A stretch of 64,000 nucleotides of DNA, taken from assembly GCA_963807085.1 (NCBI GenBank), contig CAWEBB010000032.1, forward strand, positions 38,146 to 102,145. The letters run 5' to 3'. Below the pieces are notes generated by a model. The model did no database searches and was not told the origin of the DNA. It was given only the letters and a program-made list of their open reading frames with translations. The position numbers were made by a program, and so were the translations under genes. Below are positions 7,899 to 64,000 of the stretch, piece after piece. Source of the DNA: an uncultured Alphaproteobacteria bacterium (lineage in GTDB: Bacteria > Pseudomonadota > Alphaproteobacteria > Bin95). The stretch's first letter is position 1; each line of letters starts with the position of its first letter.

Positions 7899-10236
7899 AT
7901 GCAGCGCCTGCCGTCTTCCTGTTATCGACTGCAACTGCGCAACGGCGTGGATTTCGCCGCCGCCGAACGGCTACTGCCCTACTTGATGCGGCTGGGAATC
8001 AGCCATCTCTACCTGTCGCCGGTCTTCGCCGCCCAGCCCGGATCAACCCATGGCTATGACGTGATCGACCCCACCCGCATCGAGCCGGGGCTAGGCGGAC
8101 GGGCGGGATTCGACCGGCTGGCGGAGGCAGCGCAGGCGCAAGGTATCGGCATCGTTCTGGACATCGTGCCGAATCACGTGGCCTTCACCCTGGAAAACCC
8201 GTGGCTGCGGGACCTACTGGCGCAGGGGCGCGCCAGCCGCTACGTGCGCCATTTCGACATTCTGCCGGATCGGCCCCTGGCGCTACCGATGCTGGAAGCG
8301 CCGTTCGAGGAGGTGCTGGAAAAGGACGGTTTCTCCGTCGAGACGAGCCCGGACGGGCCGGTTCTGGTGCGCGGGGCGCTGCGCGTGCCGCTCGACCCGG
8401 CGACGCTGCCACCCGATCCGCCGAAGCTCCACGACCGCGCCGCGATCCGCGCTCTGCACGACCGCCAGTTCTGGCGGCTCTGCCACTGGCGGGCCGAGCG
8501 TGACGCGATCACGCATCGGCGATTCTTCAACATCACCGGCCTGATCGGCGTGCGTGTCGAGGACGAGGAGGTGTTCGAGGACACCCATCGCCTGATCTTC
8601 GATCTGGTCGATACGGGCGCGGTGGCGGGATTGCGCATCGACCATATCGACGGGCTGGCCGGTCCCGGCGTCTATCTGCGCCGCCTGCGCGCGCGTCTTC
8701 CCGAAATTCCGATCTGGTTGGAAAAGATTCTAGCGCCGGACGAGAGCCTGCCGGACTGGCCGGTAGAAGGCACCACCGGCTATGTGCTGGCCCGCGATAT
8801 CGGGCAGGTGCTGACCGATGGCGACGGGGTGCGACGGCTCGATGCGCTCTACCGATGCCAAACCGGGCGGCAGGAGGGGTTCGGGCGGCTACGTCACCGC
8901 GGCGAAGCGCGCCGTTCTGGAGACCGAGCTTTCAGCCGAACTGTGGCGCTTGCAGGGCCTGATCGGCGCGATCGCGGCGGCGGACCGGACCGCCTGCGAA
9001 TACGGCCCCGAGACCTGGCGGCAGACGATCTTGAGCCTGATCGCGCATTTGGGACGGTATCGGACATACCTGGACGGCGACAGCCCGCGCGCTGAGGATG
9101 TCGCGGCGTTGAATGCCGCCACCGACGCTGCGGCGGGGGCACAGCCCGACCGCCGGCCGCTGGATTTCATGCTGCGCGCGCTGCTGGACCCTGGCGCGGC
9201 GGCCGGCCCGTTGCGCCTGCGATTTCAGCAGGTGGCCGGCGCGGTGATGGCAAAGGGGCAGGAGGACACCGCCTTTTATCGCTACAATCGCCTGCTGTCG
9301 GCAAACGAGGTCGGTGCGGAGCCGGACCTGCCCGCCATCGATGCCGCCACGTTCCACCGCCGGATGCAGACCCGCGCGCTGAAGATGCCCCACGGGCTGA
9401 GCCTGACATCGAGCCATGACACCAAGCGTTCCGAAGATGCCCGCATGCGGATTGCGGCGTTGACTCACCATCCCCCGTCCATCGCTGCGCTGATCGACGC
9501 GGCGCAAAAGGTCGAAGGGGCGGAGGCCGTCGATCCCAACCTGCGCTGGTATCTGGTCCAGTCGCTCTGGGCGATGCAGCCCGGTGCCGGATCAGCCGCG
9601 GAACTGGCCGACCGGCTGTGCGACCATGCCACCAAGGCGATGCGCGAGGCCAAGGAAGGCACCACCTGGCAGGACCCGGACGAGGGCTATGAGAGCGCGG
9701 CGCTCGCTTACGCCCGCGCACTGGCCCGCGCCTTCGCGCCGCCGCCCGGTGAAACCGCCGAAGCCGCCCGCACCGCCGAACGGCTGTCGCTGGTGCAGCT
9801 GGCGCTGAAACTGACGCTGCCGGGAATTCCCGACATCTATCAGGGATGCGAGATCAGTAACTATCGGCTGACCGACCCCGACAATCGCGCTGCCGTCGAT
9901 TTCGACCGGCTGGCGGCCGCGCTGGACGATGCCGGCCCGCTGCGCCCGCTGGATCGTCATAAGCTCTGCCTCACGCGCACGGTCCTGCACCTGCGCCGCG
10001 ACGAACCGGCGCTGTTCGCCGACGGAAGCTATGAGCCGCTGGACGCACCTTTTGGAGCGTTGGCGTTCCGGCGTCGCCTCGACCGACGGTCCGTGCGCGC
10101 GGTGGTGACACTTGGCCAGGCGCTCTCCCCCAAAGGCAGCCGGCCCGACAGCGGCGAGACACGGCTTTGGCCGCCGGAGGGTCTGTCGGGGGAGGGGCTC
10201 CCGGGGGAGGCGGTCGCCCTGTTCTCAGCAGGTTAA
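7899..10236 (+). pseudogene. treY: Malto-oligosyltrehalose synthase TreY, with one frameshift at about nt 8895 (extra G in ttcgggcgg). The track splits it into 7899..9095 and 8818..10236.
   Basis: N-terminal part has YRLQL...GISHLYLSP...GSTHGYDV.DP...IVLDIVPNH. C-terminal part has ...EGTTGY...AAKRAVLETELSAEL...SSHDTKRSEDARMRI... and ends 10236. Confidence 0.8.
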
Positions 10237-53110: not shown

Positions 53111-53740
53111 TCACTGGCTCGCCCATAAAATCCGGGCGATCCATTCCACCTCGGCGGTCGGCAGGACCGGGTTGTCGTATTCGGGATTGAGGCTGCGCAG
53201 TTCGATTCGCTGCGCCGTTCGCCGTACCAGTTCCTTGGCCATTACCTCGCCTTCGCTGGTTTTCACCACGACCCGATCTCCGACGCGGATATTGGCGACG
53301 GGTGAAACGATGATGCGGTCGCCGCCCCGATAGAGGGGTTCCATCGAGTCGCCGCTGACCATCAGGGCATAGGCATTGGGGTCGCCGATATCCGGAAAAA
53401 CAATCTCGTCCCAGCCCGATCCGGTCGGATAGCCGGCATCGTCGAAATAGCCGCTGTCGCCAGCCTGCGCGAAGCCGATCACGGGAATCCGCTGGGTAGC
53501 CGTGGCTGTCGAGTTTGGAAGTTCGTTCAGCAGGTCCGACAGGCTGGCGCCTGTAGCCGTCAGAATTTTCGCGATGCTCTCAGTGCTTGGCCATCGCAGC
53601 TTGCCGTCACGGGTTGCCCGCTTGCTTTTGTTGAAGGTCGTCGCATCCAGGCCGGCGCGCTTCGCCAGTCCGGAGGGAGAAAGATCGTGCTTTGCCGCCA
53701 GGCGGTCGATCGCTTCCCAGATGTCAGCGTGCTTTAACAT
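53111..53740 (-). CDS. XRE-family HTH + peptidase S24 (CI/LexA-fold) repressor, prophage-repressor type
   Basis: N-terminal HTH (LSPSGLAKRAGLDATTFNKSKR), C-terminal S24 (ALMVSGDSMEP...K). It is not the alphaproteobacterial LexA architecture. Confidence 0.8.
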   Translation of the reverse strand: MLKHADIWEAIDRLAAKHDLSPSGLAKRAGLDATTFNKSKRATRDGKLRWPSTESIAKILTATGASLSDLLNELPNSTATATQRIPVIGFAQAGDSGYFDDAGYPTGSGWDEIVFPDIGDPNAYALMVSGDSMEPLYRGGDRIIVSPVANIRVGDRVVVKTSEGEVMAKELVRRTAQRIELRSLNPEYDNPVLPTAEVEWIARILWASQ

Positions 53741-53749
53741 GATGCCTCG

Positions 53750-53774
53750 CCCTGTTGTTGGGCCTGTTGTTGGG
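53750..53774. repeat. Tandem 12/13-mer direct repeat (cctgttgttggg ×2) in the repressor's upstream region; candidate operator
   Basis: cctgttgttgggcctgttgttggg, 10-35 bp upstream of the repressor start codon. Confidence 0.5.
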
Positions 53775-53795
53775 AACACAGTCTCATACTATCGC

Positions 53796-53824
53796 TTGAC
53801 ATTCACTAGGAAAAAGTTCATATA
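53796..53824 (+). promoter_or_regulatory. Near-consensus sigma70 promoter (TTGACA-17-CATATA) facing the + strand small genes; contains two TAGGAA hexamers
   Basis: cgcTTGACAttcacTAGGAAaaagttCATATAGGAAtc. AT-rich island in a 65% GC background. Confidence 0.55.
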
Positions 53825-53858
53825 GGAATCAAAGCCGATAAATTGTTTGGAGAGAGCG

Positions 53859-54251
53859 ATGTACGATGATCCGATTGCGGGGTCGGAATCCGATGAAGGA
53901 GAGAGCCCGTTCTCCAGCGCCGACGAAGCATGGATCTGGGCCGTGCAGGGGATGCAAAGCCGCCTGTCCGGGGCAAACATCAAGGCCGGCATGGGCAAAT
54001 TTACAAGGCCTTGCGAGGCATCCGATGTTTTAGGCTGCGCCGACGCGCTGCATCGGCAGGGGGCGCTAAGCAACGTGGAGTTGCGGGTGCTGTTGCTCTA
54101 CGGCGGCTACGCGGCGGCCCCGATGATGCTGGGCTGTTCCCATGCCCCGGCGGTGCCTTTTTGGCAGCGCGGCATGGATGCGCTGACGCCATTAATGGAA
54201 CAAAAAGGGATCATTCTTCCGCGCGCAAGGGCGCGTTTCCGTGCGGACTAA
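53859..54251 (+). CDS. Hypothetical protein (130 aa)
   Basis: GGAGAG RBS and good GC3 bias; no recognisable family. Confidence 0.45.
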   Translation: MYDDPIAGSESDEGESPFSSADEAWIWAVQGMQSRLSGANIKAGMGKFTRPCEASDVLGCADALHRQGALSNVELRVLLLYGGYAAAPMMLGCSHAPAVPFWQRGMDALTPLMEQKGIILPRARARFRAD

Positions 54252-54618
54252 CGCGATCGTCGTCTTCAGCGGCCAGACCGATTTCTGGTGGCAGCGCCTG
54301 CTAAGGCCCGGCTACCGCCATTGCGGCGTCATGATCGAGTGTGGCGACCACTGGGTGGTTCTGGAGCCGCTTGCGGCGCGTTTGGAGGTGCGGATTTTCA
54401 CCGTATCCAGCCCCGACGCCCTCAAGCGGGCCCTGCGCCGCCGGCAGTTGCTGGCGGTCGAGACCGAGGTGCAAGTCGATGCGGCCCCCGCATTGTTTCC
54501 GGGCCTGTTCACCTGTGTGGAGGCCGTGAAGCGCGCCCTCGGCATTCGCGCCGTCTGGGTGCAGACCCCGTGGCAGCTCCATAAAAATCTCAAATTAGGA
54601 AAAAAAACCTTGACATGA
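54241..54618 (+). CDS. Hypothetical protein (125 aa)
   Basis: GTG start overlapping the previous stop. Its stop codon lies inside the -35 of the downstream promoter. Confidence 0.4.
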   Translation: MRTNAIVVFSGQTDFWWQRLLRPGYRHCGVMIECGDHWVVLEPLAARLEVRIFTVSSPDALKRALRRRQLLAVETEVQVDAAPALFPGLFTCVEAVKRALGIRAVWVQTPWQLHKNLKLGKKTLT

Positions 54619-54638
54619 ACACGTAATAGGAATATATA
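54610..54638 (+). promoter_or_regulatory. Near-consensus sigma70 promoter (TTGACA-17-TATATA) with an upstream A-tract, preceding the virion gene block
   Basis: attAGGAAaaaaaaccTTGACAtgaacacgtaaTAGGAAtaTATATAc. Confidence 0.55.
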
Positions 54639-54743
54639 CATCCTCAAGACGGCCCCACTGCGCCCAGCGCCCGGGGCCGTTCCTGTTTCCGACAACCGCA
54701 TGGAACGGCGCCAGACGCATGGCCGGTTCCAAAAGGAGGATGG

Positions 54744-54980
54744 ATGGGCGCCATTATCAGTCCACTGACGCGGGAGGCTCCGGCTCCCAAGCCGACGCCG
54801 ACCGTCGTCGAACCCGCGGTCGATCCGGCCGTGGCGGAGCGCGAAGCCGCATCGGCGGCCCGGCGCGCGTTCCTGGCCCGCCAACAGAAAGGGCGGCTCG
54901 GAACGATCGCCACCACCGCCCGGGGTGTTTTGAGCCCTGGCCAGTTGTCGGTCGTCCGCCGCTCATTGCTCGGAGAATAA
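54744..54980 (+). CDS. Small Pro/Ala-rich hypothetical protein (78 aa) immediately upstream of the portal gene
   Basis: AAGGAGG RBS. The stop is 1 nt before the portal ATG. Confidence 0.5.
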   Translation: MGAIISPLTREAPAPKPTPTVVEPAVDPAVAEREAASAARRAFLARQQKGRLGTIATTARGVLSPGQLSVVRRSLLGE

Positions 54981-54981
54981 G

Positions 54982-56523
54982 ATGAAGGCAGCCGAAATCC
55001 TCCGGCAGGAGTTCACGCAGGCGTTCCGTGGTCGCATGGCCTGGGAAGAGCATTGGCGCGATTGCTATGCCTACGCCATGCCGCAGCGCGAGGCCGGTGC
55101 TCCGGCGGGCGCCCGCCGCTCCGACCGTCTGTTCGACGGAACCGCGGCCGACGCGGTCGAGCAACTGGCGGCCAGCCTGCTCTCCGAACTGACGCCGCCC
55201 TGGGTGCGTTGGGTGGAACTGAAGCCGGGGCCCGAAGCCACGGTTGACGAAGCGGCGGCGATATCGCCGGCGCTCGACCGGGTGAGCGCCACGTTGCAGT
55301 CTCATTTCGACCGCTCCAACTTCGCGGTCGAAATCCACCAATGCTATCTGGACCTGGTGACGGCCGGTACCGCCTGTCTGCTGTTCGAAGAGGCGCCGGT
55401 CGGCGAGGCCAGCGCCTTTCGCTTTACCGCGGTGCCGATCCACGACGTCCTCATGCAGGAGGGCGCAACCGGCCGGTTGGACCGTGTGTGGCGCCGCGTG
55501 CAGCTGACCCCAGAGCAGTTCGTGGAACGCTACGGGCACCCGCCCACGGCCGAGCCCGGTGCGGAGGCGCCGAAAAAGATCGGCGTGCTGGAAGCCGTGC
55601 GCCCGACACCGAATGGTCACAAATACGTGGCAGTGCGCGAACAGGGGGAAGGCGACGACGGAACCCTGGCGGAAGGCGAGTTCGCCTCCAACCCCTTTAT
55701 CGGCTTCCGCTGGCTGAAAGCGCCGGGCGAGTCCTATGGACGTTCGCCGGTGATGACCGCCTTGCCGGATATCAAGACCGCTAACAAGGTCGTGGAGCTG
55801 ATTCTTAAGAACGCCTCCATCGCCGTCACCGGCATCTGGCAAGCGGACGACGACGGCGTCCTGAACCCCGGCACGGTCAAGCTGGTACCCGGCACCATCA
55901 TTCCGAAGGCCGTCGGCTCGGCGGGCCTGGCGCCGCTGCAGGCGCCCGGCCGGTTCGATGTTTCCGAATTGGTCCTCAGCGATCTGCGCGCCCGCATTCG
56001 TCACGCCCTGCTGGTGGACCGGTTGGGTACGGTGCAAAGTCCGCGCATGACCGCGACCGAGGTGTTGGAGCGCTCGGCGGAGATGGCCCGCATCCTGGGG
56101 GCGACCTATGGCCGGCTTCAGGCGGAGCTGTTGTCGCCCTTGCTTTCGCGGGGGCTCAGCATTCTGCGTCGGCGCGGCGAGGTTCCGGATGTTCAGGTCG
56201 ATGGGCGCACGGTTGACCTGCACTACCGCTCGCCGCTGGCGGAAGCGCAGAACCGGGCGGAGGCGCAATCGGCGCTGGGCTGGGTCAAGACCGTCGCCGA
56301 GATGGGGCCGGAGGGTCTCTCGGTCGTCGATCTGCCCGCCTTCGCGCGCTGGCTGGCGGGCAAGATGTCGGTGCCGGGAGAACTGCTGCGCCCGCCGCCC
56401 TTGGCGCCGATCACCGACGTTTCCGGCGATGACGCGCTCGCCCAGTTGTCGGACGCGCTGCTGCCCGCTCTTGGAGAAGGCGCCGGAGTGAATACCGGGG
56501 AGGGCGACGGCGATGCTGAATGA
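54982..56523 (+). CDS. T7-type portal (head-to-tail connector) protein
   Basis: Collinear with T7 gp8, including LKAPGESYGRSPV versus T7 RLDGESYGRSYIE, plus SNFAVEIHQCYLDLVTAGTACLLFEE. Confidence 0.8.
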   Translation: MKAAEILRQEFTQAFRGRMAWEEHWRDCYAYAMPQREAGAPAGARRSDRLFDGTAADAVEQLAASLLSELTPPWVRWVELKPGPEATVDEAAAISPALDRVSATLQSHFDRSNFAVEIHQCYLDLVTAGTACLLFEEAPVGEASAFRFTAVPIHDVLMQEGATGRLDRVWRRVQLTPEQFVERYGHPPTAEPGAEAPKKIGVLEAVRPTPNGHKYVAVREQGEGDDGTLAEGEFASNPFIGFRWLKAPGESYGRSPVMTALPDIKTANKVVELILKNASIAVTGIWQADDDGVLNPGTVKLVPGTIIPKAVGSAGLAPLQAPGRFDVSELVLSDLRARIRHALLVDRLGTVQSPRMTATEVLERSAEMARILGATYGRLQAELLSPLLSRGLSILRRRGEVPDVQVDGRTVDLHYRSPLAEAQNRAEAQSALGWVKTVAEMGPEGLSVVDLPAFARWLAGKMSVPGELLRPPPLAPITDVSGDDALAQLSDALLPALGEGAGVNTGEGDGDAE

Positions 56524-56776
56524 TCTTCAGGACGGATGGGCGTGGTTTGACGACCCGTCGGAACGGCAGGCGGACAGTGAGCTGCGGCAGTATTTCGTCC
56601 GCGCCTTTCATTCGGACGCGGGGCGGCAGGTGTTGGCGCATTTGCGCGCCGCAACGGTGGAACGGCGCACGCCGCCCGACGCGCCGGACAGCGTCCTCCG
56701 CCATCTGGAGGGCCAACGCTACCTGTTTCAACTGATCGAACGGCTGGCGAATGCCGAGCTGCAGGAGTCTGCGTAG
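56513..56776 (+). CDS. Hypothetical protein (87 aa), overlapping the portal 3' end
   Basis: Coding-like GC3; unknown function. Confidence 0.35.
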   Translation: MLNDLQDGWAWFDDPSERQADSELRQYFVRAFHSDAGRQVLAHLRAATVERRTPPDAPDSVLRHLEGQRYLFQLIERLANAELQESA

Positions 56777-56777
56777 A

Positions 56778-57578
56778 ATGAACGAACCTCTCAACACACC
56801 CACCGAGAGCGGCGATAGCGCGATTTCGGCCGGCACCGCGCAGGGCCTGCCGGAGCGGTCAATGGAGCGGCCCGGCGAGGGAGCCGTTACGCGGCCCGCA
56901 TCGGTTCCGGACAAATTCTGGGACACGGCGACGAACTCCGTCCGTGTGGACGACCTCGCCAAATCCTATTGCGAGCTGGAGCGCCATTTGGGCGGCTCCG
57001 TAAAGATTCCGGACGAAAGCGCGGACGATGCGGAGATCGCCCGTTTCCGCCAGGCCCTGGGCGTGCCGGAAAACCCCGATGGCTATGAACTTCAACTGGA
57101 CGAAGAAAGCCTGGAAGCCGACCCGGAGGTCAACCGCCGGCTGCACGAAGCGGGCTTCAGCCAAAGCCAGGCCCAGCTCGTCTATGACTTGGCCAGGGAA
57201 TATATCGGCCCCATGGTTCAGCAGACCGCCGCCGATTTCGAGGCAGAGCGCCAGACCGAGCGCCTGCAACAGCATTTCGGCGGTGCGGAGGCCTGGACGG
57301 GCATCTCGCGCCAGCTTCAGGAATGGGGCAAGGCCAACATGGCGCCGGAGGCTCTTAGCGCACTGTCGACTACCTATGAGGGATGTTTGGCGCTGCACAA
57401 AATGATGCAAAGCCAGGAGCCCGGCCTCGTCCGCAGCAACGGCCCCGCCGAGCGGGATGGCACCGACGAGTTGAAGGCGATGATGCGCGACCCGCGTTAT
57501 TGGCGCGACCGCGACCCTGCCTTCATCCGACAAGTCACCGATGGTTTCAGCCGCCTGTACGCCGACGGCGACGGCTAG
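56778..57578 (+). CDS. Putative scaffolding protein (acidic; 266 aa)
   Basis: Position between portal and capsid; acidic, coiled-coil-like composition. Confidence 0.45.
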   Translation: MNEPLNTPTESGDSAISAGTAQGLPERSMERPGEGAVTRPASVPDKFWDTATNSVRVDDLAKSYCELERHLGGSVKIPDESADDAEIARFRQALGVPENPDGYELQLDEESLEADPEVNRRLHEAGFSQSQAQLVYDLAREYIGPMVQQTAADFEAERQTERLQQHFGGAEAWTGISRQLQEWGKANMAPEALSALSTTYEGCLALHKMMQSQEPGLVRSNGPAERDGTDELKAMMRDPRYWRDRDPAFIRQVTDGFSRLYADGDG

Positions 57579-57843
57579 GCGGAGCCATCTGGAGCAGATA
57601 CCGATCCAGTCGGATTGGATGCTCAAGGAATCGCTAGGGCGCGCACGATCGCGCGCCCTAGCGGTGGCGGGCCCGCCGGAGAACTGGAGATTTCCCCGCC
57701 CGAGAGGGCGTGTTTGGGAAAAGTCGCCAGCCCGGCGGGCCTTCAGGCAGAACGACGGCCGTTCCGCAGGTGCAAACCTACGGGGCGGGAACCGGATGGA
57801 AGCTGCTTCCCCACCAACAGAAAAATCAAAGGGTTAATTGCAG

Positions 57844-58662
57844 ATGTCGACCACCATCGACCAATCGTTCATCCGCCAGTTCGAGGCCGAAGTTCACGAG
57901 GCCTATCAGCGGATGGGATCCAAGCTCCGTCAGACTGTCCGCTCCAAGGGCAATGTACAAGGTTCCTCGACCACCTTCCAAAGGGTCGGCCAGGGCGCGG
58001 CTTCCACCAAGTCGCGGCATGGCCTGGTCCCCGTCATGACTATCGATCACAGCGCCATCGAGTGCGTGCTGACCGACTATTATGCCGGTGACTGGGTCGA
58101 CAAGCTCGACGAGATGAAAATCAACATCGACGAGCGGCACGTGATCGCCAACGCCGGCGCCTATGCGCTGGGCCGCAAGACGGACGAGTTGATCATCGCC
58201 GGCCTGAACACGTCCACTAACTACGCCGGTCTCGCGACCGACGGCCTGACGAAGGCCAAGGTTCTGACCGCCTTTGAGAAGATGGGGGCGGCGGATATTC
58301 CCGACGATGGCCAGCGCTTCGCGGTCATCGGCTGGAAACAGTGGGCGGAGTTGCTTAGCATTCCGGAGTTCGCCAACGCGGAATATGTCGGGGCGGACGC
58401 GCTGCCCTGGCGCGACACACAGGCGAAGCGCTGGCTCGGAACCACCTGGATCCCGCATTCCGGCCTGTCTCTTTCCGGCTCGGCGCGCCTGTGTCACTGG
58501 TACCATCGGACGGCGATCGGTCATGCGGCCGCCGCAGAGGTCCAGACCGACATCACCTGGCACGGCGACCGGGCGGCCTACTTTGTCGCCAACATGATGA
58601 GCCAGGGTGCGGTGAGGATCGACGGCGCCGGTGTCGTGACCATGCGTTGCTTCGAGAGCTAA
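57844..58662 (+). CDS. T7-type major capsid protein
   Basis: FIRQFEAEVHEAYQRMGSKLRQTVRSKGNVQGSSTTFQRVGQ parallels T7 gp10 LFLKVFGGEVLTAFARTSVTTSRHMVRSISSGKSAQFPVLGR. Confidence 0.7.
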   Translation: MSTTIDQSFIRQFEAEVHEAYQRMGSKLRQTVRSKGNVQGSSTTFQRVGQGAASTKSRHGLVPVMTIDHSAIECVLTDYYAGDWVDKLDEMKINIDERHVIANAGAYALGRKTDELIIAGLNTSTNYAGLATDGLTKAKVLTAFEKMGAADIPDDGQRFAVIGWKQWAELLSIPEFANAEYVGADALPWRDTQAKRWLGTTWIPHSGLSLSGSARLCHWYHRTAIGHAAAAEVQTDITWHGDRAAYFVANMMSQGAVRIDGAGVVTMRCFES

Positions 58663-58689
58663 ACCGCCAAGCTGAAGAAGGGACGCCAC

Positions 58690-58929
58690 ATGGCATTCGA
58701 CCCCCAAAACATGGGCGTGCTGGGCTACTGCAATGGCTTTACTCTCTGGTATTATCGGTCGGCGACGGACAATTACCCGACCGTTACCGCAGACGGCTAT
58801 TTCACCCCGTTCTATGAGTCTCTCAGTCTGGAAGATGTCATCTTCTTTACCGAGTCGAATGGACGGACCGGCCGGCGGCGTATCAACCAACTGTCCAAGT
58901 CGTTGGTGACGATAACGCACCTGCTTTAG
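58690..58929 (+). CDS. Hypothetical protein (79 aa)
   Basis: ORF with an ATG start between the capsid and tubular A genes. Confidence 0.3.
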   Translation: MAFDPQNMGVLGYCNGFTLWYYRSATDNYPTVTADGYFTPFYESLSLEDVIFFTESNGRTGRRRINQLSKSLVTITHLL

Positions 58930-59019
58930 CTCCCTAGCAACTCAGCAACCACTCATATCAGCCGCGGCCTCGCTCTCGATCGGGAGCGGGGCCGTTTCCT
59001 TATCAAGGGAGTTTTCTCG

Positions 59020-59592
59020 ATGGCTCTTAGCGCTATCGCGCTCTGCTCGCGCGCGCTGTTGAAGCTCGGCGCCCGGCCGATCGCCGGGTTCGACGAAGGC
59101 ACTGCCGAAGCGGAGGTCGCGGTCAATCTGTTTCCCTCCATCCGCGATGCGTTGCTTTCGGCGCATGGCTGGTCGTTCGCCACGGCCCAGAGCCGGCTGC
59201 CCCAGCTGGAAGAAGCGCCGGTGGCGGATTTCGACCGGGCTTTTCAACTGCCCGTGGATTTCCTGCGGGCCTTGTCGGCCGGTGCGGGTGCGCGCGGCCG
59301 CGGCCTGGTCTACCGGATTGTGGATGATCGGCTGCATACCTCCTCAAGCGAAGTTTATCTGACCTACATTTTCCGGCCAGCCGAGGTCGATTTCCCGCCA
59401 TTTTTCGACCAGCTTCTGATCGCCCGGCTTGCCGCGGAGTTTTGCATTCCGGTCACGGAAAGCACCAGCCGCGCCGAGATGCTGTACCGGATCGCCGAAA
59501 CCGAGTTCCGCCGCGCGCGCCTGGTCGATGCACAGCAGGACACGCCGCTCGCGATCGAAGACTTCCCGCTGGTTGCGGTGCGCGGCCGATGA
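59020..59592 (+). CDS. T7-type tail tubular protein A (gp11-like)
   Basis: Size and position match; ALLKLGARPIAGFDEG...LLSAHGWSFA parallels T7 gp11 ILASIGEPPVSTLEGD...IQSRGWTFN. GGGAG RBS. Confidence 0.6.
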   Translation: MALSAIALCSRALLKLGARPIAGFDEGTAEAEVAVNLFPSIRDALLSAHGWSFATAQSRLPQLEEAPVADFDRAFQLPVDFLRALSAGAGARGRGLVYRIVDDRLHTSSSEVYLTYIFRPAEVDFPPFFDQLLIARLAAEFCIPVTESTSRAEMLYRIAETEFRRARLVDAQQDTPLAIEDFPLVAVRGR

Positions 59593-61493
59593 CGGTCGTC
59601 AACCTGTTGAAGACCAACTTCACGGCGGGCGAGATCTCGCCGCTGCTGTATGGCCGCGGGGATTTGCGCGCGTACGACAACGGCGCGGCAAAGCTTCAAA
59701 ACGTCTTCATTCACCCGACCGGCGGCGTCTATCGCCGGCCTGGCCTCCGCTATATCGGGCCTGCGCGCGGGCGCGGGCGCCTTATGACGTTCGAGTTCAA
59801 TACCGAACAGGTGTACCTGCTCGCCTTCAGCGACCGGATGCTGGACATCTATGAAGGGGACAACCTGGTCGTCTCGGTCGCGACGCCCTGGACCGAAGCG
59901 CAACTGGCGCAGATCGCCTGGACCCAAAGCGCCGACACATTGCTCGTGACCCATCCGGACGTGCCGCCCCGGCGGATCACCCGGACGGGCCCCGCCACCT
60001 GGACCGTCAGCGAGTGGGTTTTCGCCGAAAAGGACGGCGTGTGGTACGCGCCATTTTTCCGGTTCGGCCACACGGGCGTGACGCTGACGCCGAGCGCCGT
60101 GACCGGCGCCATCACCATCACCGCGTCTGCGGCGGTGTTCGATGCAAACCATGTCGGCACCCGCCTGCGGTTGGCGACCAAGCAGGTGGCGATCACCGGC
60201 TTCACCTCGCCGACGCAAGTGAGCGCCGACGTTCTGCAAGACCTGGCTGGCCTGGAGCCGACCGAAGATTGGGACGAACCGGCCTTTTCCCCGCGGCGCG
60301 GCTGGCCGGTCACGGTGGCCTTTCATCAGGATCGGCTGGTCATTGGCGGCTCCCGCGATCTGCCGAACCGGCTTTGGTTCTCCAAGTCGGGCGACCTGTT
60401 CAACTTCGATCAGGGCGAGGGCCTGGACGACGAAGCGATCGAGTTTCCGATCCTCTCCGATCAGGTCAACGCCATCCGTGCCCTGTTCTCAGGCCGGCAC
60501 CTGCAGGTCTTTACCTCGGGCGCCGAATGGATGGTGACGGGCGACCCGTTGGCGCCGACCACCGTGCAGCTGCGCCGGCAGACCCGCATCGGCTCGCTGA
60601 TCAGCCGAACAATTCCCCCGAAAGACGTGGATGGCGCGACCATGTTCGTCGGGCGCACCGGTCACGAGCTGCGGGAGTTCCTGTTCTCGGATATCGAGCA
60701 GGCCTATCAGGCGGGCGACCTGGCGCTGCTGGTCGCGCACTTCTTCCGTGATCCGCTCATGCAGGATTTCGACCCGGCCCACCGGCTGCTGCATCTGGTG
60801 CTGGCGGATGGGACGCTGGCGACGCTGACAATCTACCGCAACGAGCAGGTTACCGCCTGGACGCGGCAGATCACGGAAGGTTCCTTCCGCGACTTGGCGG
60901 TCGTCGGCGATACCACGTACGTGCTGGTGCAGCGTGCGCACGGCCTGTTCGTCGAAGTCTTCGACGAAACATTTGGCGTCGATAGCGGCGTCCATACCCA
61001 GGTGTTTACCCTGGAGGACTCCGCGACCGGTCTGGACCACCTGGAAGGGCAGACCGTTGCCATTGTCGCCGATGGCACCCTGCGCCAGTCCCAGACGGTA
61101 CAGGGTGGGCGAGTTGCGGTCGGTGCTGCCGCCTACCAGGCAGCGATCGGGCTGCCCTTTCAGCACATTATCGAGGCGCTGCCGGTCGCCGGATCGATGC
61201 CGGGCGGCTCGGCCCAGGGCCGTTCTTACCGGGTGGTCGAGGCAACCTTCCGCCTGCACGAGACGGGGGCGCTCGTCTGCGACCTGGGTTCCGGCCTGAC
61301 GCCGGTGCCGTTTCGGCAGGTGGGCGGGACCACCAGCTTCGGCAGTCCCGCCCCGAACTTTTCCGGGGACAAGCATATCCGCGCGCTCGGCTGGCGGCGC
61401 TCCGGCATCGATGCGCCATGGCGCATCGATCAGGACGCGCCGCTGCCGTGCACCGTTCTTTCCGTAACAACTGAAATCAAGGTGACCAACTGA
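59589..61493 (+). CDS. T7-type tail tubular protein B (gp12-like)
   Basis: N-terminal NFTAGEISPLLYGRGDLRAY...VYRRPGLRYI parallels T7 gp12 NLKGGISQQPDILRYPDQ...KRPPLVFL. ATGA overlap with the gp11-like gene. Confidence 0.65.
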   Translation: MTVVNLLKTNFTAGEISPLLYGRGDLRAYDNGAAKLQNVFIHPTGGVYRRPGLRYIGPARGRGRLMTFEFNTEQVYLLAFSDRMLDIYEGDNLVVSVATPWTEAQLAQIAWTQSADTLLVTHPDVPPRRITRTGPATWTVSEWVFAEKDGVWYAPFFRFGHTGVTLTPSAVTGAITITASAAVFDANHVGTRLRLATKQVAITGFTSPTQVSADVLQDLAGLEPTEDWDEPAFSPRRGWPVTVAFHQDRLVIGGSRDLPNRLWFSKSGDLFNFDQGEGLDDEAIEFPILSDQVNAIRALFSGRHLQVFTSGAEWMVTGDPLAPTTVQLRRQTRIGSLISRTIPPKDVDGATMFVGRTGHELREFLFSDIEQAYQAGDLALLVAHFFRDPLMQDFDPAHRLLHLVLADGTLATLTIYRNEQVTAWTRQITEGSFRDLAVVGDTTYVLVQRAHGLFVEVFDETFGVDSGVHTQVFTLEDSATGLDHLEGQTVAIVADGTLRQSQTVQGGRVAVGAAAYQAAIGLPFQHIIEALPVAGSMPGGSAQGRSYRVVEATFRLHETGALVCDLGSGLTPVPFRQVGGTTSFGSPAPNFSGDKHIRALGWRRSGIDAPWRIDQDAPLPCTVLSVTTEIKVTN

Positions 61494-61948
61494 TGGGCGC
61501 AGTAGCTCCTGTAATCGCGGCAGGCTCGCTGATGGGATTGAGCCTGCTCGACAACGCCAACTCCGCGCGCACGGCCCAGCAACGGGCGGCGCAATCCTCC
61601 GAGGCGGCCCGGGCCAATGCCGACCTGCAACTGGCGAAGCTCCAGTCCGACCAGGAAGAGAGCCAGGCCAAGCGGCAGTCGGCGTTGCGGCGCGCGCAGG
61701 CACGCACGCGGGCCCTGCTGGCCAGCCGCGGCGTCGGCGGCTCCGGCCGTGCCGTGCTGCAGGGCCTGGCGGTCGAAGCCGCCCGGGACCAAGCGTTTGC
61801 GGACAGCGATGCCGACTTGCAGCGCCAGAGTATCGAGCTGGGCGTGGACACCACGCGCCGGCGCAACCTGCTGGCCGCCGACGATGCGCGACGCCGCGCC
61901 CAGTTGGACCTGCTGCGCACCGGCACCCGCACGATCAACAGCCTATAG
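61493..61948 (+). CDS. Hypothetical coiled-coil virion protein (151 aa; possibly gp13/gp14-like)
   Basis: ATG overlaps the gp12-like stop (cTGATGg). Gln/Arg/Ala-rich. Confidence 0.4.
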   Translation: MGAVAPVIAAGSLMGLSLLDNANSARTAQQRAAQSSEAARANADLQLAKLQSDQEESQAKRQSALRRAQARTRALLASRGVGGSGRAVLQGLAVEAARDQAFADSDADLQRQSIELGVDTTRRRNLLAADDARRRAQLDLLRTGTRTINSL

Positions 61949-61967
61949 CGCCGACGGAGAACGACCG

Positions 61968-64000
61968 ATGGTTCAGTCCAAACATATAAGAATACAAGCA
62001 AAAAGCCCGCGCGTGCAGTACATTGCCGACGGCACGCAAACCTTCTTCACGTTCACTTTTCCCGTCTTTCATGCCGGCAATCTGCACGTCTATGTCGATG
62101 AGGTTCTGCAGGTCGGCACCTATACGGCGAACGGTGTCGGCGCGAGCCATGGCGGCGCGATCGTATTCGAGAACCCGCCGCCCGCGGGCGCCCGCATCAC
62201 GCTGCGGCGGCTGCTGCCGGTCGAGCGGGTCACTGACTTTCAGGAAGGGGGCGATTTTCGCGCCGCGACCCTGAATGACGAACTCGACTACCAGACCGCG
62301 GCCATGCAGCAGATCCAGTCGGACATGGAGCGGGGCCTTCGCCTGGCGCCGACCGATACGGAAGCGACGACCACCCTGCCGGGCAAGGGGGACCGCGCCG
62401 GCAAGTTCCTGGCGTTCGACACCGCTGGGCAGCCGGTGGCGCTGCCGCCGACCACGGATATGCCCGGCGACGCCAGTACCGCCTATGTGATCGGCTCCGG
62501 CCAGGTGACACCGCGCACGCTCGCAGACCGCTTTTCGGCGATCCCGACCGTGCTGGACCAGGGAGCGAAGGGCGATGGCGGCACCGACGATGGCCCGGTC
62601 CTTGCAACGCTTGCTTCGCCTCACTTGCTGCCGGCCGGCAGTTATGCGGTCAGTGCCGACGATCTGCCGGCGGTCCGCCCCTATAACGTTTACGGTGGCG
62701 GCGAACTGGTGGACCCGAACGCGACCGAAACCTCGCTCCGTGCCCGTCAGCGCCTGCTGAACGATCGCGGCATGGGGTATTCGCTGGGCATGATGGCCAG
62801 CCTGTTGCCGGATCTCTCCGGGCCGCGGATGGATATGGCGGCGCTTGCCGATGCGATTGCAATGGGGGCCGCCAAAGTGGTCCTGGTCGGCGACAGCATT
62901 ACCGAAGGGGCGGACGTCGAGGAGGAAAACAGTTGGGGCGCGCTGCTCCAGCAGAGCCTCGAGCGCACCTTTCCGGAGGTCACCTGGACCTTCGCCAACC
63001 TATCGCTCGCCTCGCGCCATGCCGAGCATCTGGCGGACCCGGCCTATTTGGGCTTGCCCAGCGAGCCGGCGGACAAGGAGCAGGGCTTCTTTCGCCCACC
63101 CGCCACCGCCTTTCCCCGTGAGAACTGGCAGGCCGGCTCCGTCACCGGCAAGTCCTGGCGCAACCATGTGCGGGACGAGGCGCCGGATCTGATCGTCTGG
63201 GCGCACGGGATGAACAATTTTCACCTCTCCGGCCAGCAATATTTCGCCGCGCTGATCAGCTTTCTGGACTATGCGAAGACCTGGGCAAAGGTGCCGGCGA
63301 TCGCGCTGGCCACGACATTTCTGCCGACACGCCTGAACCCGATCTATCGGGCGCGTCAGGGGGCGCATGACGGGCACTACCGCATCCTGCGGGAGATTGC
63401 CGTGATCCGCCGCACGGGTCTGATCGATGCGAACCGGGTCTATCACTTCCTGCGCGATGGTGTGGACGAAGGGCGCCGCCACTGGTTCCGCGAAGACAAT
63501 TTCCGCGGGTGGAACACAGCCTGGTGGGATTTCCTCGAAGGCGGCACCGGTCAGGTGGCCACCGCCTCCGGCCGGCTGCGCTTTTCCGGCATCGCCCGGC
63601 CCCGGCGCAAGCTGATGGCCGCCGACTTCCAGGCGGACATTACCTGGAAGCCGGCGAATGCTGCAGATGTGCTGGGGTTCAATTACCGTGTCGACCCGGA
63701 CAATGGCGCCGATCGGTACGAGTTCCAGTGGTCCGGCCCGAACCTGAAGATCTACTGGAAGAACACGGTCAAGCTTGCCGCTATTGATGCGGCGGCGGCG
63801 GCCGGCACCGACAATTTCGTGCGCATCCGCTGCGACGGCGCCCGGCATCGCGTCTGGATCAATGGCGTCCTGAAGCTGGATGGCAATGACTTTGCCAACC
63901 TGGCCGAAGGTTCGTGCGCATATCGCGCCTATCTGGGCAGTGCGGCCGCCGCGGAAATCGGCTGCCGGCTGAAGATCGGTTACCCGGCCCGGCATGCCCG
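61968..64000 (+). CDS. Tail fibre protein: T7 gp17-type N-terminal domain fused to an SGNH/GDSL hydrolase-like domain; 3' end lies beyond the window
   Basis: GGAG RBS and ATG 61968. Frame 0 stays open to nt 64000 by manual translation. QYIADGTQTFFTFTFPVF..NLHVYVDEV....ARITLRRLLPVERVTDFQEGGDFRAATLNDELDYQTAAMQQIQ matches the T7 fibre N-domain pattern. Later VVLVGDSITEG and WAHGMNNF resemble SGNH blocks I and III. Confidence 0.75.
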   Translation, partial: MVQSKHIRIQAKSPRVQYIADGTQTFFTFTFPVFHAGNLHVYVDEVLQVGTYTANGVGASHGGAIVFENPPPAGARITLRRLLPVERVTDFQEGGDFRAATLNDELDYQTAAMQQIQSDMERGLRLAPTDTEATTTLPGKGDRAGKFLAFDTAGQPVALPPTTDMPGDASTAYVIGSGQVTPRTLADRFSAIPTVLDQGAKGDGGTDDGPVLATLASPHLLPAGSYAVSADDLPAVRPYNVYGGGELVDPNATETSLRARQRLLNDRGMGYSLGMMASLLPDLSGPRMDMAALADAIAMGAAKVVLVGDSITEGADVEEENSWGALLQQSLERTFPEVTWTFANLSLASRHAEHLADPAYLGLPSEPADKEQGFFRPPATAFPRENWQAGSVTGKSWRNHVRDEAPDLIVWAHGMNNFHLSGQQYFAALISFLDYAKTWAKVPAIALATTFLPTRLNPIYRARQGAHDGHYRILREIAVIRRTGLIDANRVYHFLRDGVDEGRRHWFREDNFRGWNTAWWDFLEGGTGQVATASGRLRFSGIARPRRKLMAADFQADITWKPANAADVLGFNYRVDPDNGADRYEFQWSGPNLKIYWKNTVKLAAIDAAAAAGTDNFVRIRCDGARHRVWINGVLKLDGNDFANLAEGSCAYRAYLGSAAAAEIGCRLKIGYPARHA

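Follow-up and report, generated by a model that had tools for sequence, protein, structure and literature searches.

Within the 64,000-nucleotide stretch of an uncultured alphaproteobacterial genome analyzed here (the window, whose positions are used throughout), positions 53741-54690 lie between a repressor gene and the virion genes of a ~15-kb cluster of T7-like particle genes. We propose, with somewhat more conviction than doubt, that this region is the control switch of the cluster, in which an S24-type repressor would act at a TAGGAA palindrome, a late promoter (P2) would be blocked by a terminator, and the Q-like product of a small open reading frame (ORF2) would override that block. T7-like structural modules normally depend on their own RNA polymerase. 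The ~15-kb element contains no integrase, replication or RNA polymerase genes, and it is because a phage RNA polymerase is absent from it that the host enzyme must transcribe the T7-like virion genes. The first-pass annotation of this DNA had assigned expression to host sigma70 under a CI-like repressor. The first part agrees with the conserved promoters described below, and a repressor of that kind is indeed encoded divergently beside the early promoter (P1), but P2 is probably not governed by repression alone, as a terminator-like hairpin precedes the virion genes. What that annotation did not contain is the likeness of the modeled ORF2 protein to the antiterminators Q21 and AlpA, which points to the logic of the lambda late genes or of AlpR/AlpA.

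The comparisons are based on a scan of one genome per species. At least 540 genomes, of Rhodospirillales and allied groups, encode a relative of ORF3, the gene that follows ORF2, and 80 loci (given L numbers) were kept, from Azospirillum, Magnetospirillum, Paramagnetospirillum, Phaeospirillum, Micavibrio, Magnetovibrio and many metagenome-assembled genomes of Rhodospirillales. The intergenic region between the repressor gene and ORF2 (IG1) was compared in 76 loci.

Two conserved promoters

P1 (53796-53824, + strand) consists of TTGACA (53796-53801) and CATATA (53819-53824), and P2 (54596-54638, + strand) of a -35 TTGACA (54610-54615) and a -10 TATATA (54633-54638), in both cases with a 17-bp spacer, and P2 has in addition an UP-like element, TAGGAAAAAAAACC, at 54596-54609 (+). 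Compared with the sigma70 hexamers, the -35 matches at 6/6 positions in both promoters and the -10 at 3/6 in P1 and 4/6 in P2. They are the only two matches to TTGACA-N17-YATATA in the window, where 0.05 are expected, and two matches were reached in 1 of 100 shuffles. Both lie in islands with a GC fraction of 0.30-0.37 within surroundings of ~0.65. The two promoters in AT-rich islands that the first-pass annotation had named thus withstood both reading and the pattern search. A generic promoter scanner returned 0 sites and listed neither of them, because it demands T at the last position of the -10 and both hexamers end in A. Both fit CTTGAC-N17-CTATAT, which we take to be the rhizobial consensus.

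The position of P1 is kept in the clade of the window (alignment A3), and a P1-type promoter is found in all loci (76 IG1 sequences). In P2, CTTGAC and TATA are invariant and the spacers variable among relatives separated by more than one synonymous substitution per site (dS > 1). The conservation of both promoters spans loci with saturated synonymous sites (dS 0.9-2.4), and since synonymous sites between these loci have diverged, the intergenic identities are footprints of selection. On sequence grounds, P1 and P2 are conserved sigma70-type promoters across diverged relatives, and P2 has the build of a strong one. P2 was found in ~30 loci; in the Azospirillum and Micavibrio loci, ORF3 leads straight into ORF4 or the portal gene. 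When 31 P2 promoters are anchored on the -10, the conserved features are an UP-like GGAAAAAAnnCC, CTTGAC, ataGG.a and TATA. The element ataGG.a is the only conserved one in the spacer, and both this alignment and the footprint of the window clade, in which CTTGAC, TAGG and TATA are invariant, show the otherwise variable 17-bp spacer to end in ATAGGAA.

The final two sense codons of ORF3, for Leu and Thr, are also the -35 of P2, which adjoins the TGA (54616-54618) rather than overlapping the stop codon as had been annotated. The A-tract and the -35 of P2 are retained both inside and outside the ORF3 reading frame, and the C-terminal motif KKxL[DT] of ORF3 is conserved because its codons are the A-tract and CTTGAC of P2 (54600-54615, alignment A1). 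Here a promoter constrains the tail of a protein, which in the window reads KKTLT.

The hexamer TAGGAA occurs at 53807, 53823, 54596 and 54627, on the + strand in all four cases. Its frequency in the window is that expected by chance (8 found, 7.2 expected), and the sole unusual aspect is the clustering of four copies on one strand within ~830 bp. It had been placed upstream of the -35 and in the spacer or -10 region at both promoters, which is true of P2, but at P1 both copies lie downstream of the -35, in the spacer and at or past the -10. As a motif shared by the two promoters it stands for three of the four copies, which are conserved and part of an operator-like site, but not for the copy at 53823. 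The copy at 54627-54632 adjoins the -10 of P2, is conserved in relatives and begins an operator-like half-consensus site at that -10 (TAGGAATATATACATC, 54627-54642, +).

The repressor gene and its probable operator

The repressor gene (53111-53740, - strand) is divergent from P1 and encodes 209 residues with a Cro/C1-type helix-turn-helix (HTH) and an S24 self-cleaving peptidase (Pfam Peptidase_S24, E 3.9e-22, and HTH_26, E 8e-5; PHROG transcriptional repressor, E 9e-31), and phmmer against PDB gave nothing at E <= 1e-3. Its translation, read by eye, has AQAG, GDSM and a downstream Lys, candidate motifs for an Ala-Gly cleavage site and a Ser-Lys dyad. The start codon is the ATG at 53740, one position from the 53741 given previously.

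A 16-bp imperfect palindrome, O1 (TAGGAAaaagTTCATA, TAGGAA-aaag-TTCATA, 53807-53822, not assigned to a strand), fills the spacer and the -10 of P1 and is the only perfect match to TAGGAANNNNTTCMTA within the window. Sites that agree with the palindrome at 10 or more of 12 positions have a density of 4.1 per kb in IG1 and 0.04 per kb in the other 1.28 Mb, a difference of ~100-fold. TAGGAA-N4-TTC[AC]TA keeps a constant distance of +36 to the repressor ATG in most of the 76 loci, and some Micavibrio-type loci have perfect TTCCTA-N4-TAGGAA palindromes. In the window clade the -35 of P1 lies upstream of the palindrome, which consequently occupies the P1 spacer and -10 (alignment A3). The HTH segment GLD[AP]TTFNKSKR..GK.RWPSTES is nearly invariant in the 76 loci. 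We assign the palindrome to the repressor because this recognition-helix region and the AGGAA core are both nearly invariant, and the site at 53807-53822 is its probable operator. The direct repeat TAGGAA-N10-TAGGAA that had been suggested as the operator at P1 was rejected, since its second copy, at 53823-53828 (+) right after O1, is not conserved in the closest relatives (CCAGGT in L002 and TCACAT in L005), and the palindrome fits better. What is left of that suggestion is that TAGGAA belongs to a conserved site, but the unit is an inverted and not a direct repeat.

For the repressor gene itself we predict an extended -10 promoter, TGAGACTGT (53778-53786, -), which is overlapped by a weak operator-like site, TGGGAACACAGTCTCA (8/12 positions, within 53771-53786, -). 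Across many loci a palindrome-like site recurs at offset 0. The block GGGAAC..TCTCA beside the repressor start is invariant in alignment A3 and reads on the minus strand as an extended -10, TGAGAT[TA][AG]T. In most IG1 loci the extended -10 (TGAGATTAT, e.g., L041 9419-9445) is only 6 nt from the repressor ATG, which implies a leaderless repressor mRNA in those relatives. On this mRNA the window clade has gained a 20-30-nt leader that includes a Shine-Dalgarno sequence; the extra ~20-30 nt between promoter and ATG are found only in the window, L002 and L005 (alignment A3).

Most of the ~30-nt 5' leader of the repressor mRNA (minus strand) consists in the window of an exact tandem 12-mer (CCTGTTGTTGGG twice, 53751-53774, +). 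The repeat is as it had been described, but the operator role proposed for it was rejected, as it is in no relative, neither in alignment A3 nor in the 76 IG1 sequences. Even L002, L005 and L011, whose repressors are 91-92% identical, lack it, and the duplication is specific to this genome. Slippage in the 5' leader is the best explanation for this duplication, which has no conserved part in the switch. If translation began at an in-frame GTG (53779), the repressor would gain 13 residues and the 12-mer would encode PTTGPTTG; this extension is probably not used, because in L005 its frame (53741-53779) holds a stop codon.

A direct repeat like the alphaproteobacterial LexA box (GTTC-N7-GTTC / GAAC-N7-GAAC) is found in relatives just past the -10 of P1. 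In the form GAAC-N7-GAAC it is perfect in 38 of the 76 loci, has at most one mismatch in 60 of them, and is 100-fold above background in IG1. Such boxes occur in L007-L009 and L018-L090 (e.g., L008 9573-9587), sometimes two or three in phase. Neither orientation of the box is present in or near the element in the window, nor in its nearest relatives, and the clade of the window has lost these boxes, while the -35 of its P1 has shifted upstream of the operator. The 12-mer (GTTG-N8-GTTG) bears a superficial likeness to the LexA box but is not conserved.

ORF2 and ORF3

The genes downstream of P1 are ORF2 (130 aa, 53859-54251, +), an all-helical candidate Q21/AlpA-like antiterminator, and ORF3 (125 aa, 54241-54618, +), a permuted papain-like cysteine hydrolase (NlpC/P60, YiiX/TseH-like); sequence searches of Pfam, NCBIfam and PDB gave no match for either. 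The model of ORF2 is helical with a mean predicted local distance difference test score (pLDDT) of 79.5, and in the fold search the best match is Q21 and the second AlpA, both antiterminators, with a modest structural score. Foldseek again placed Q21 first, at a level that is not significant (E 3.6). The loop between helices 1 and 2 (GAN.K...RPCEASD) is the invariant or most conserved segment of the protein and is modeled with low confidence. From the modeled fold, ORF2 may be a Q-like antiterminator. A scan of IMG/VR with ORF2 gave one match, a truncated copy of the same cluster.

ORF3 is modeled with a pLDDT of 83.5, and its His27 and Cys92 are invariant. It was considered as a regulator and rejected in view of the papain-like hydrolase fold and this invariant His/Cys pair. 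Its relatives in the protein database number 18 matches, and in the phage-like contig L010 a homolog stands directly before the portal gene.

The P2 leader and its hairpin

The transcript of P2 is predicted to start at ~54645-54646, in a conserved segment (54644-54650, +) that reads TCAAGAC in the window and that we regard as a candidate pause or loading element. CAAGAC is nearly invariant in the window clade, other relatives have TTAACGA or CATCAACAC, and P2 leaders carry a TGYGYCC motif near +18. Next comes a terminator-like hairpin with a 9-bp GC stem and an inner 4-bp stem, followed by the tail CCUGUUUCC (54648-54690, hairpin 54648-54681, +), with a minimum free energy of -24.1 kcal/mol and a z score of -3.4 against shuffles. 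A hairpin of -18 kcal/mol or lower together with a T-tract follows P2 in 17 of 30 loci, compared with 62 of 1495 random 100-nt windows (~4%), a 14-fold enrichment. In distant loci the hairpins are GC-rich and unrelated in sequence, with clear T-runs ending at +35 to +58, and in L002 and L005 the U-tracts are better than in the window. There is thus a hairpin between P2 and the late genes, where a Q-type circuit has its intrinsic terminator.

The call of a terminator is based on folding each sequence separately against the random-window control. RNAalifold on four close leaders gave no covariation, the sequences being too similar, and on 12 distant leaders the alignment could not register hairpins of variable length. 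A promoter-proximal terminator is not a general property of the P1 leaders in loci without P2, where it was found in only 5 of 45.

The leader of P2 also has a motif, GGnAC-AnnTGYGTCC (e.g., L008 10483-10510), that resembles the segment following the LexA box in P1 leaders of loci without P2, which is GGGAAC-AnTTGTGTCC in Micavibrio-type loci (e.g., L019 ~9510-9535). P2 may have originated as a duplicate of the P1 module.

Proposed mechanism of the switch

The binding, cleavage and antitermination steps that we now put forward are built on the anatomy, conservation, enrichment, domain content and fold similarity described above. In the resting state, a dimer of the CI/AlpR-like repressor would occupy TAGGAA-N4-TTCATA, as suggested by the position and conservation of the motif and by the protein domains, and its binding would shut P1 because the palindrome fills the spacer and the -10. 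The repressor would probably occupy the weaker site that covers the divergent extended -10 promoter of its own gene as well, and it may bind the TAGGAA half-sites flanking P2. DNA damage would stimulate self-cleavage of the repressor through RecA and so free P1; in most relatives, although not in the window, a LexA-type box lies over the P1 start and the loss of LexA would add to this release. The freed P1 would then direct synthesis of ORF2 and ORF3, which follow it in that order, the former acting as a Q21/AlpA-like protein and the latter as a papain-like hydrolase. RNA polymerase that starts at P2 meets the stable hairpin and its T-rich tail within ~45 nt and, without a helper, would yield only a short RNA. 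By its fold, its gene position and analogy, ORF2 may be the helper, loading on the polymerase at P2 and making it terminator-resistant, and the virion, packaging and lysis genes would then be transcribed as one long late operon.

Several observations weigh against this mechanism. In over half of the loci, those of Azospirillum and Micavibrio, ORF2 is retained while the P2/terminator module is missing, so ORF2 must also act beyond P2. The P2 transcript opens with a segment that departs from the canonical -10-like pause element in lacking T at its last position. The window has a weak U-tract, and a terminator scanner made no call, while in a sister subclade (L013, L014, L028 and L036) P2 is present and the hairpins are weak or missing. 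Finally, the TAGGAA of P2 fits a repressor half-site and an ORF2 loading site alike, and both P2 sites are degenerate in their right half (9/12).

The alternative that survives best, although we think it unlikely, is that repression is sufficient, with the CI-like repressor shutting both P1 and P2 at the TAGGAA sites, the hairpin ending the ORF2-ORF3 transcript and being leaky for P2, and ORF2 serving as an ordinary DNA-binding regulator, either Cro-like or an activator. In its favor, P2 has TAGGAA half-sites across its -10 and the region next to its -35, and in several distant loci (L015, L050, L060, L012 and L007) full TAGGAn-N4-nTCCTn palindromes lie over the P2 -10. Moreover, an identical 14-mer, TAGGAATATATACA, occurs in the P1 spacer of some Azospirillum loci without P2, as would be expected of a position-tolerant operator. 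Across loci ORF2 is far more variable than the repressor HTH or TAGGAA, which are invariant alike, and sigma region 4, whose HTH fold is generic, is another of its matches. However, the window has no more than half-consensus sites at P2, the two best-ranked folds for ORF2 are those of antiterminators specifically, and a terminator between a near-consensus promoter and 13 kb of genes is hard to explain unless read-through is regulated, while the 14-fold enrichment of hairpin and T-tract is at precisely that position.

It is improbable, in our estimation, that P2 and the hairpin form instead a gene for a small RNA of ~40-45 nt acting in trans (in immunity, or in regulation of host or particle) and that the virion genes are read from P1 or another promoter. 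A strong promoter followed at once by a stable terminator-like hairpin, with the conserved 5' TCAAGAC/TTAACGA and the TGYGYCC motif inside the short transcript, is what such a gene would look like. Nevertheless, Rfam matches for the window region and for L008 were at chance level only, it is the presence of a hairpin and not its sequence that is conserved between clades, no candidate target was found, and the 6S RNA of lambda PR' is an example of a short RNA that is a by-product of an antitermination switch.

We give equally little credence to the idea that TAGGAA at the P2 -10 is the loading site of ORF2, the P1 palindrome being the only true repressor operator: the Q-binding element (QBE) and AlpA-binding element (ABE) are 6-bp elements in the same place, between -35 and -10 (PMC6606751, PMC9371919), and ataGG.a alone is conserved in the spacers of the 31 P2 promoters, but the same hexamer makes up one half of the palindrome in IG1, a site that goes with the repressor gene, TAGGAA is much better preserved than ORF2, and in some P1 promoters the motif is ~10 bp further upstream of the -10.

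Comparison with known systems

The published Q21 and AlpA circuits combine a Q-like protein with a promoter that carries a 6-bp element in its spacer, a -10-like pause element and a downstream terminator (PMC6606751, PMC9371919). In Pseudomonas aeruginosa, the self-cleaving repressor AlpR controls the antiterminator AlpA, with a 6-bp element and a downstream intrinsic terminator before the lysis genes (PMC9371919, PMC7969949), and BrrG of BaGTA and GafZ of CcGTA, two gene transfer agents (GTAs), are related alphaproteobacterial antiterminators (10.1101/2024.11.20.624540). The switch proposed here resembles the AlpR/AlpA/PalpB-tB programmed-lysis switch in its S24-type repressor, its small gene for a candidate Q21-like fold, its candidate 6-bp spacer element and its terminator-like hairpin. 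It differs in that there is no sequence similarity, the target is a T7-like cluster in its entirety, from head and tail to packaging and lysis, the spacer element is TAGGAA, also a repressor half-site, instead of GGGACG, the hydrolase ORF3 is co-transcribed with the candidate antiterminator, and no canonical -10-like pause element is visible.

The lambdoid late switch (Q of phage 21 or lambda, PR', tR' and CI) has in common with the present one a Q-like gene directly upstream of a constitutive-looking strong promoter, and we predict two further likenesses, a short terminated leader RNA before one long late operon and a CI-like repressor with palindromic operators between divergent promoters. 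The leaderless repressor mRNA implied in most relatives recalls that of lambda cI from PRM. In contrast to the lambdoid switch, the late genes are T7-like, the terminator starts at ~+5 and not ~+190, and the operator is TAGGAA-N4-TTCCTA; in contrast to lambdoid phages, the element lacks an integrase, an N protein and a replication module and is fixed in the chromosome.

A third comparison is with the GTA antiterminators (BrrG of BaGTA; GafZ/GafA of CcGTA and RcGTA), where a small protein like Q21 or sigma region 4 switches on a domesticated head-tail cluster by read-through of a terminator that follows the cluster promoter, also in alphaproteobacterial hosts (10.1101/2024.11.20.624540, PMC11150451). 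Those GTAs, however, derive from siphovirus-like (HK97-type) or other phages and not from T7-like podoviruses, and they are controlled by CtrA, quorum sensing or RogA, whereas control here would be by an S24 repressor, with LexA boxes in relatives.

The T7-like cluster and its inheritance

The hairpin is followed by ORF4 (78 aa, 54744-54980, +, phrog_831) and by the late genes (54982 to the end of the window, +), which start with a T7-type portal (513 aa; ORF4 and portal together span 54744-56523) and continue with a Bbp19-like protein, T7 scaffold, capsid, tail tubular proteins A and B, and a gp14-like protein. A strong terminator-like hairpin (58964-58995, 14 pairs, T-rich tail) stands after the capsid gene and a 79-aa ORF and before the tail genes, a position that recalls the T7 terminator after gene 10. 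The cluster continues on L091, a contig of the same organism, with a protein that has the T7 tail-fiber N terminus and a GDSL region, a holin-like protein and three small ORFs, and then the large terminase, a cell-wall hydrolase and a host dihydroorotate dehydrogenase. The first of these (L091 1589-4168, 859 aa) joins a T7 tail-fiber N-terminal domain to a GDSL-type esterase region, which suggests a receptor-modifying, deacetylase-like fiber. In total the cluster extends over window positions 53111-64000 and L091 1-7815 (to ~68.2 kb in window coordinates), and it is flanked by host genes, an Oxygenase-NA gene on the left and the dihydroorotate dehydrogenase gene on the right. A blastn search of the region against a phage collection gave one irrelevant partial match to a portal gene.

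The order repressor (- strand), ORF2, ORF3, ORF4 where present, portal, Bbp19 and scaffold is kept in nearly all loci, and insertions have often moved the capsid gene out of place. These inserted genes are unrelated to the cluster, often lie between scaffold and capsid, and leave the structural genes intact; they are seen in L009 (10493-12692 and 15737-17493) and in L034, L058 and L073, where the capsid lies 5-7 kb past the scaffold, and one inserted gene, on the opposite strand, encodes a metallo-beta-lactamase fold. The closest loci (L002, L005, L011 and L012) share their left-hand host gene with the window. Between the window and L011 or L005, dS is 0.9-2.1 for the element genes and 1.0-2.4 for the flanking host genes, and the ratio of nonsynonymous to synonymous divergence (dN/dS) of the element genes is 0.04-0.19. 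The agreement of element and flank in dS, together with the low dN/dS, fits vertical inheritance of a functional cluster and not a recent prophage.

The element has the gene content of a GTA, with head, tail, packaging and lysis genes between host flanks and no integrase, replication or transcription genes, and it is inherited vertically under purifying selection as a GTA would be, so the element may be GTA-like. In Azospirillum lipoferum and Azospirillum sp. B510, mitomycin-C-inducible particles with ~10 kb DNA have been described that are thought to be GTAs (PMC3899980, PMC3245306). A. lipoferum Sp59b (L057) carries an SOS-wired cluster of the present type, and the literature searched contained no description of a T7-like GTA in Rhodospirillales. 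As a tentative extension, which we hold with distinctly less confidence than the switch itself, we suggest that the switch could serve an unrecognized podovirus (T7)-derived GTA-like element fixed vertically across Rhodospirillales (Azospirillum, Magnetospirillum, Micavibrio and relatives), induced by DNA damage via the S24 repressor (plus LexA boxes in most lineages) with the Q21-like antiterminator as executor, and that such an element could underlie the mitomycin-inducible particles of Azospirillum.

Meaning for the Rhodospirillales

The regulatory logic is already known from lambda Q, AlpR/AlpA and the GTA antiterminators, and it is the cargo that is unusual. If the proposed mechanism is true, a T7-like module has been placed under a host-polymerase circuit in the style of lambda and Alp, made up of a self-cleaving repressor, an antiterminator and a terminator-gated late promoter, and the domesticated phage clusters of Alphaproteobacteria would include a third, independent lineage with Q-type antitermination. 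It offers concrete targets, namely a 16-bp operator, a ~45-nt leader RNA and a 130-aa candidate antiterminator, in a cluster that occurs in cultivable model genera such as Azospirillum and Magnetospirillum. To our knowledge, Rhodospirillales largely lack clusters of the RcGTA type. The vertically inherited, compact T7-like cluster across this order is a more novel lead than the logic of the switch: without replication genes, and kept by purifying selection in hundreds of species whose divergence it follows, it may represent a new family of GTAs.

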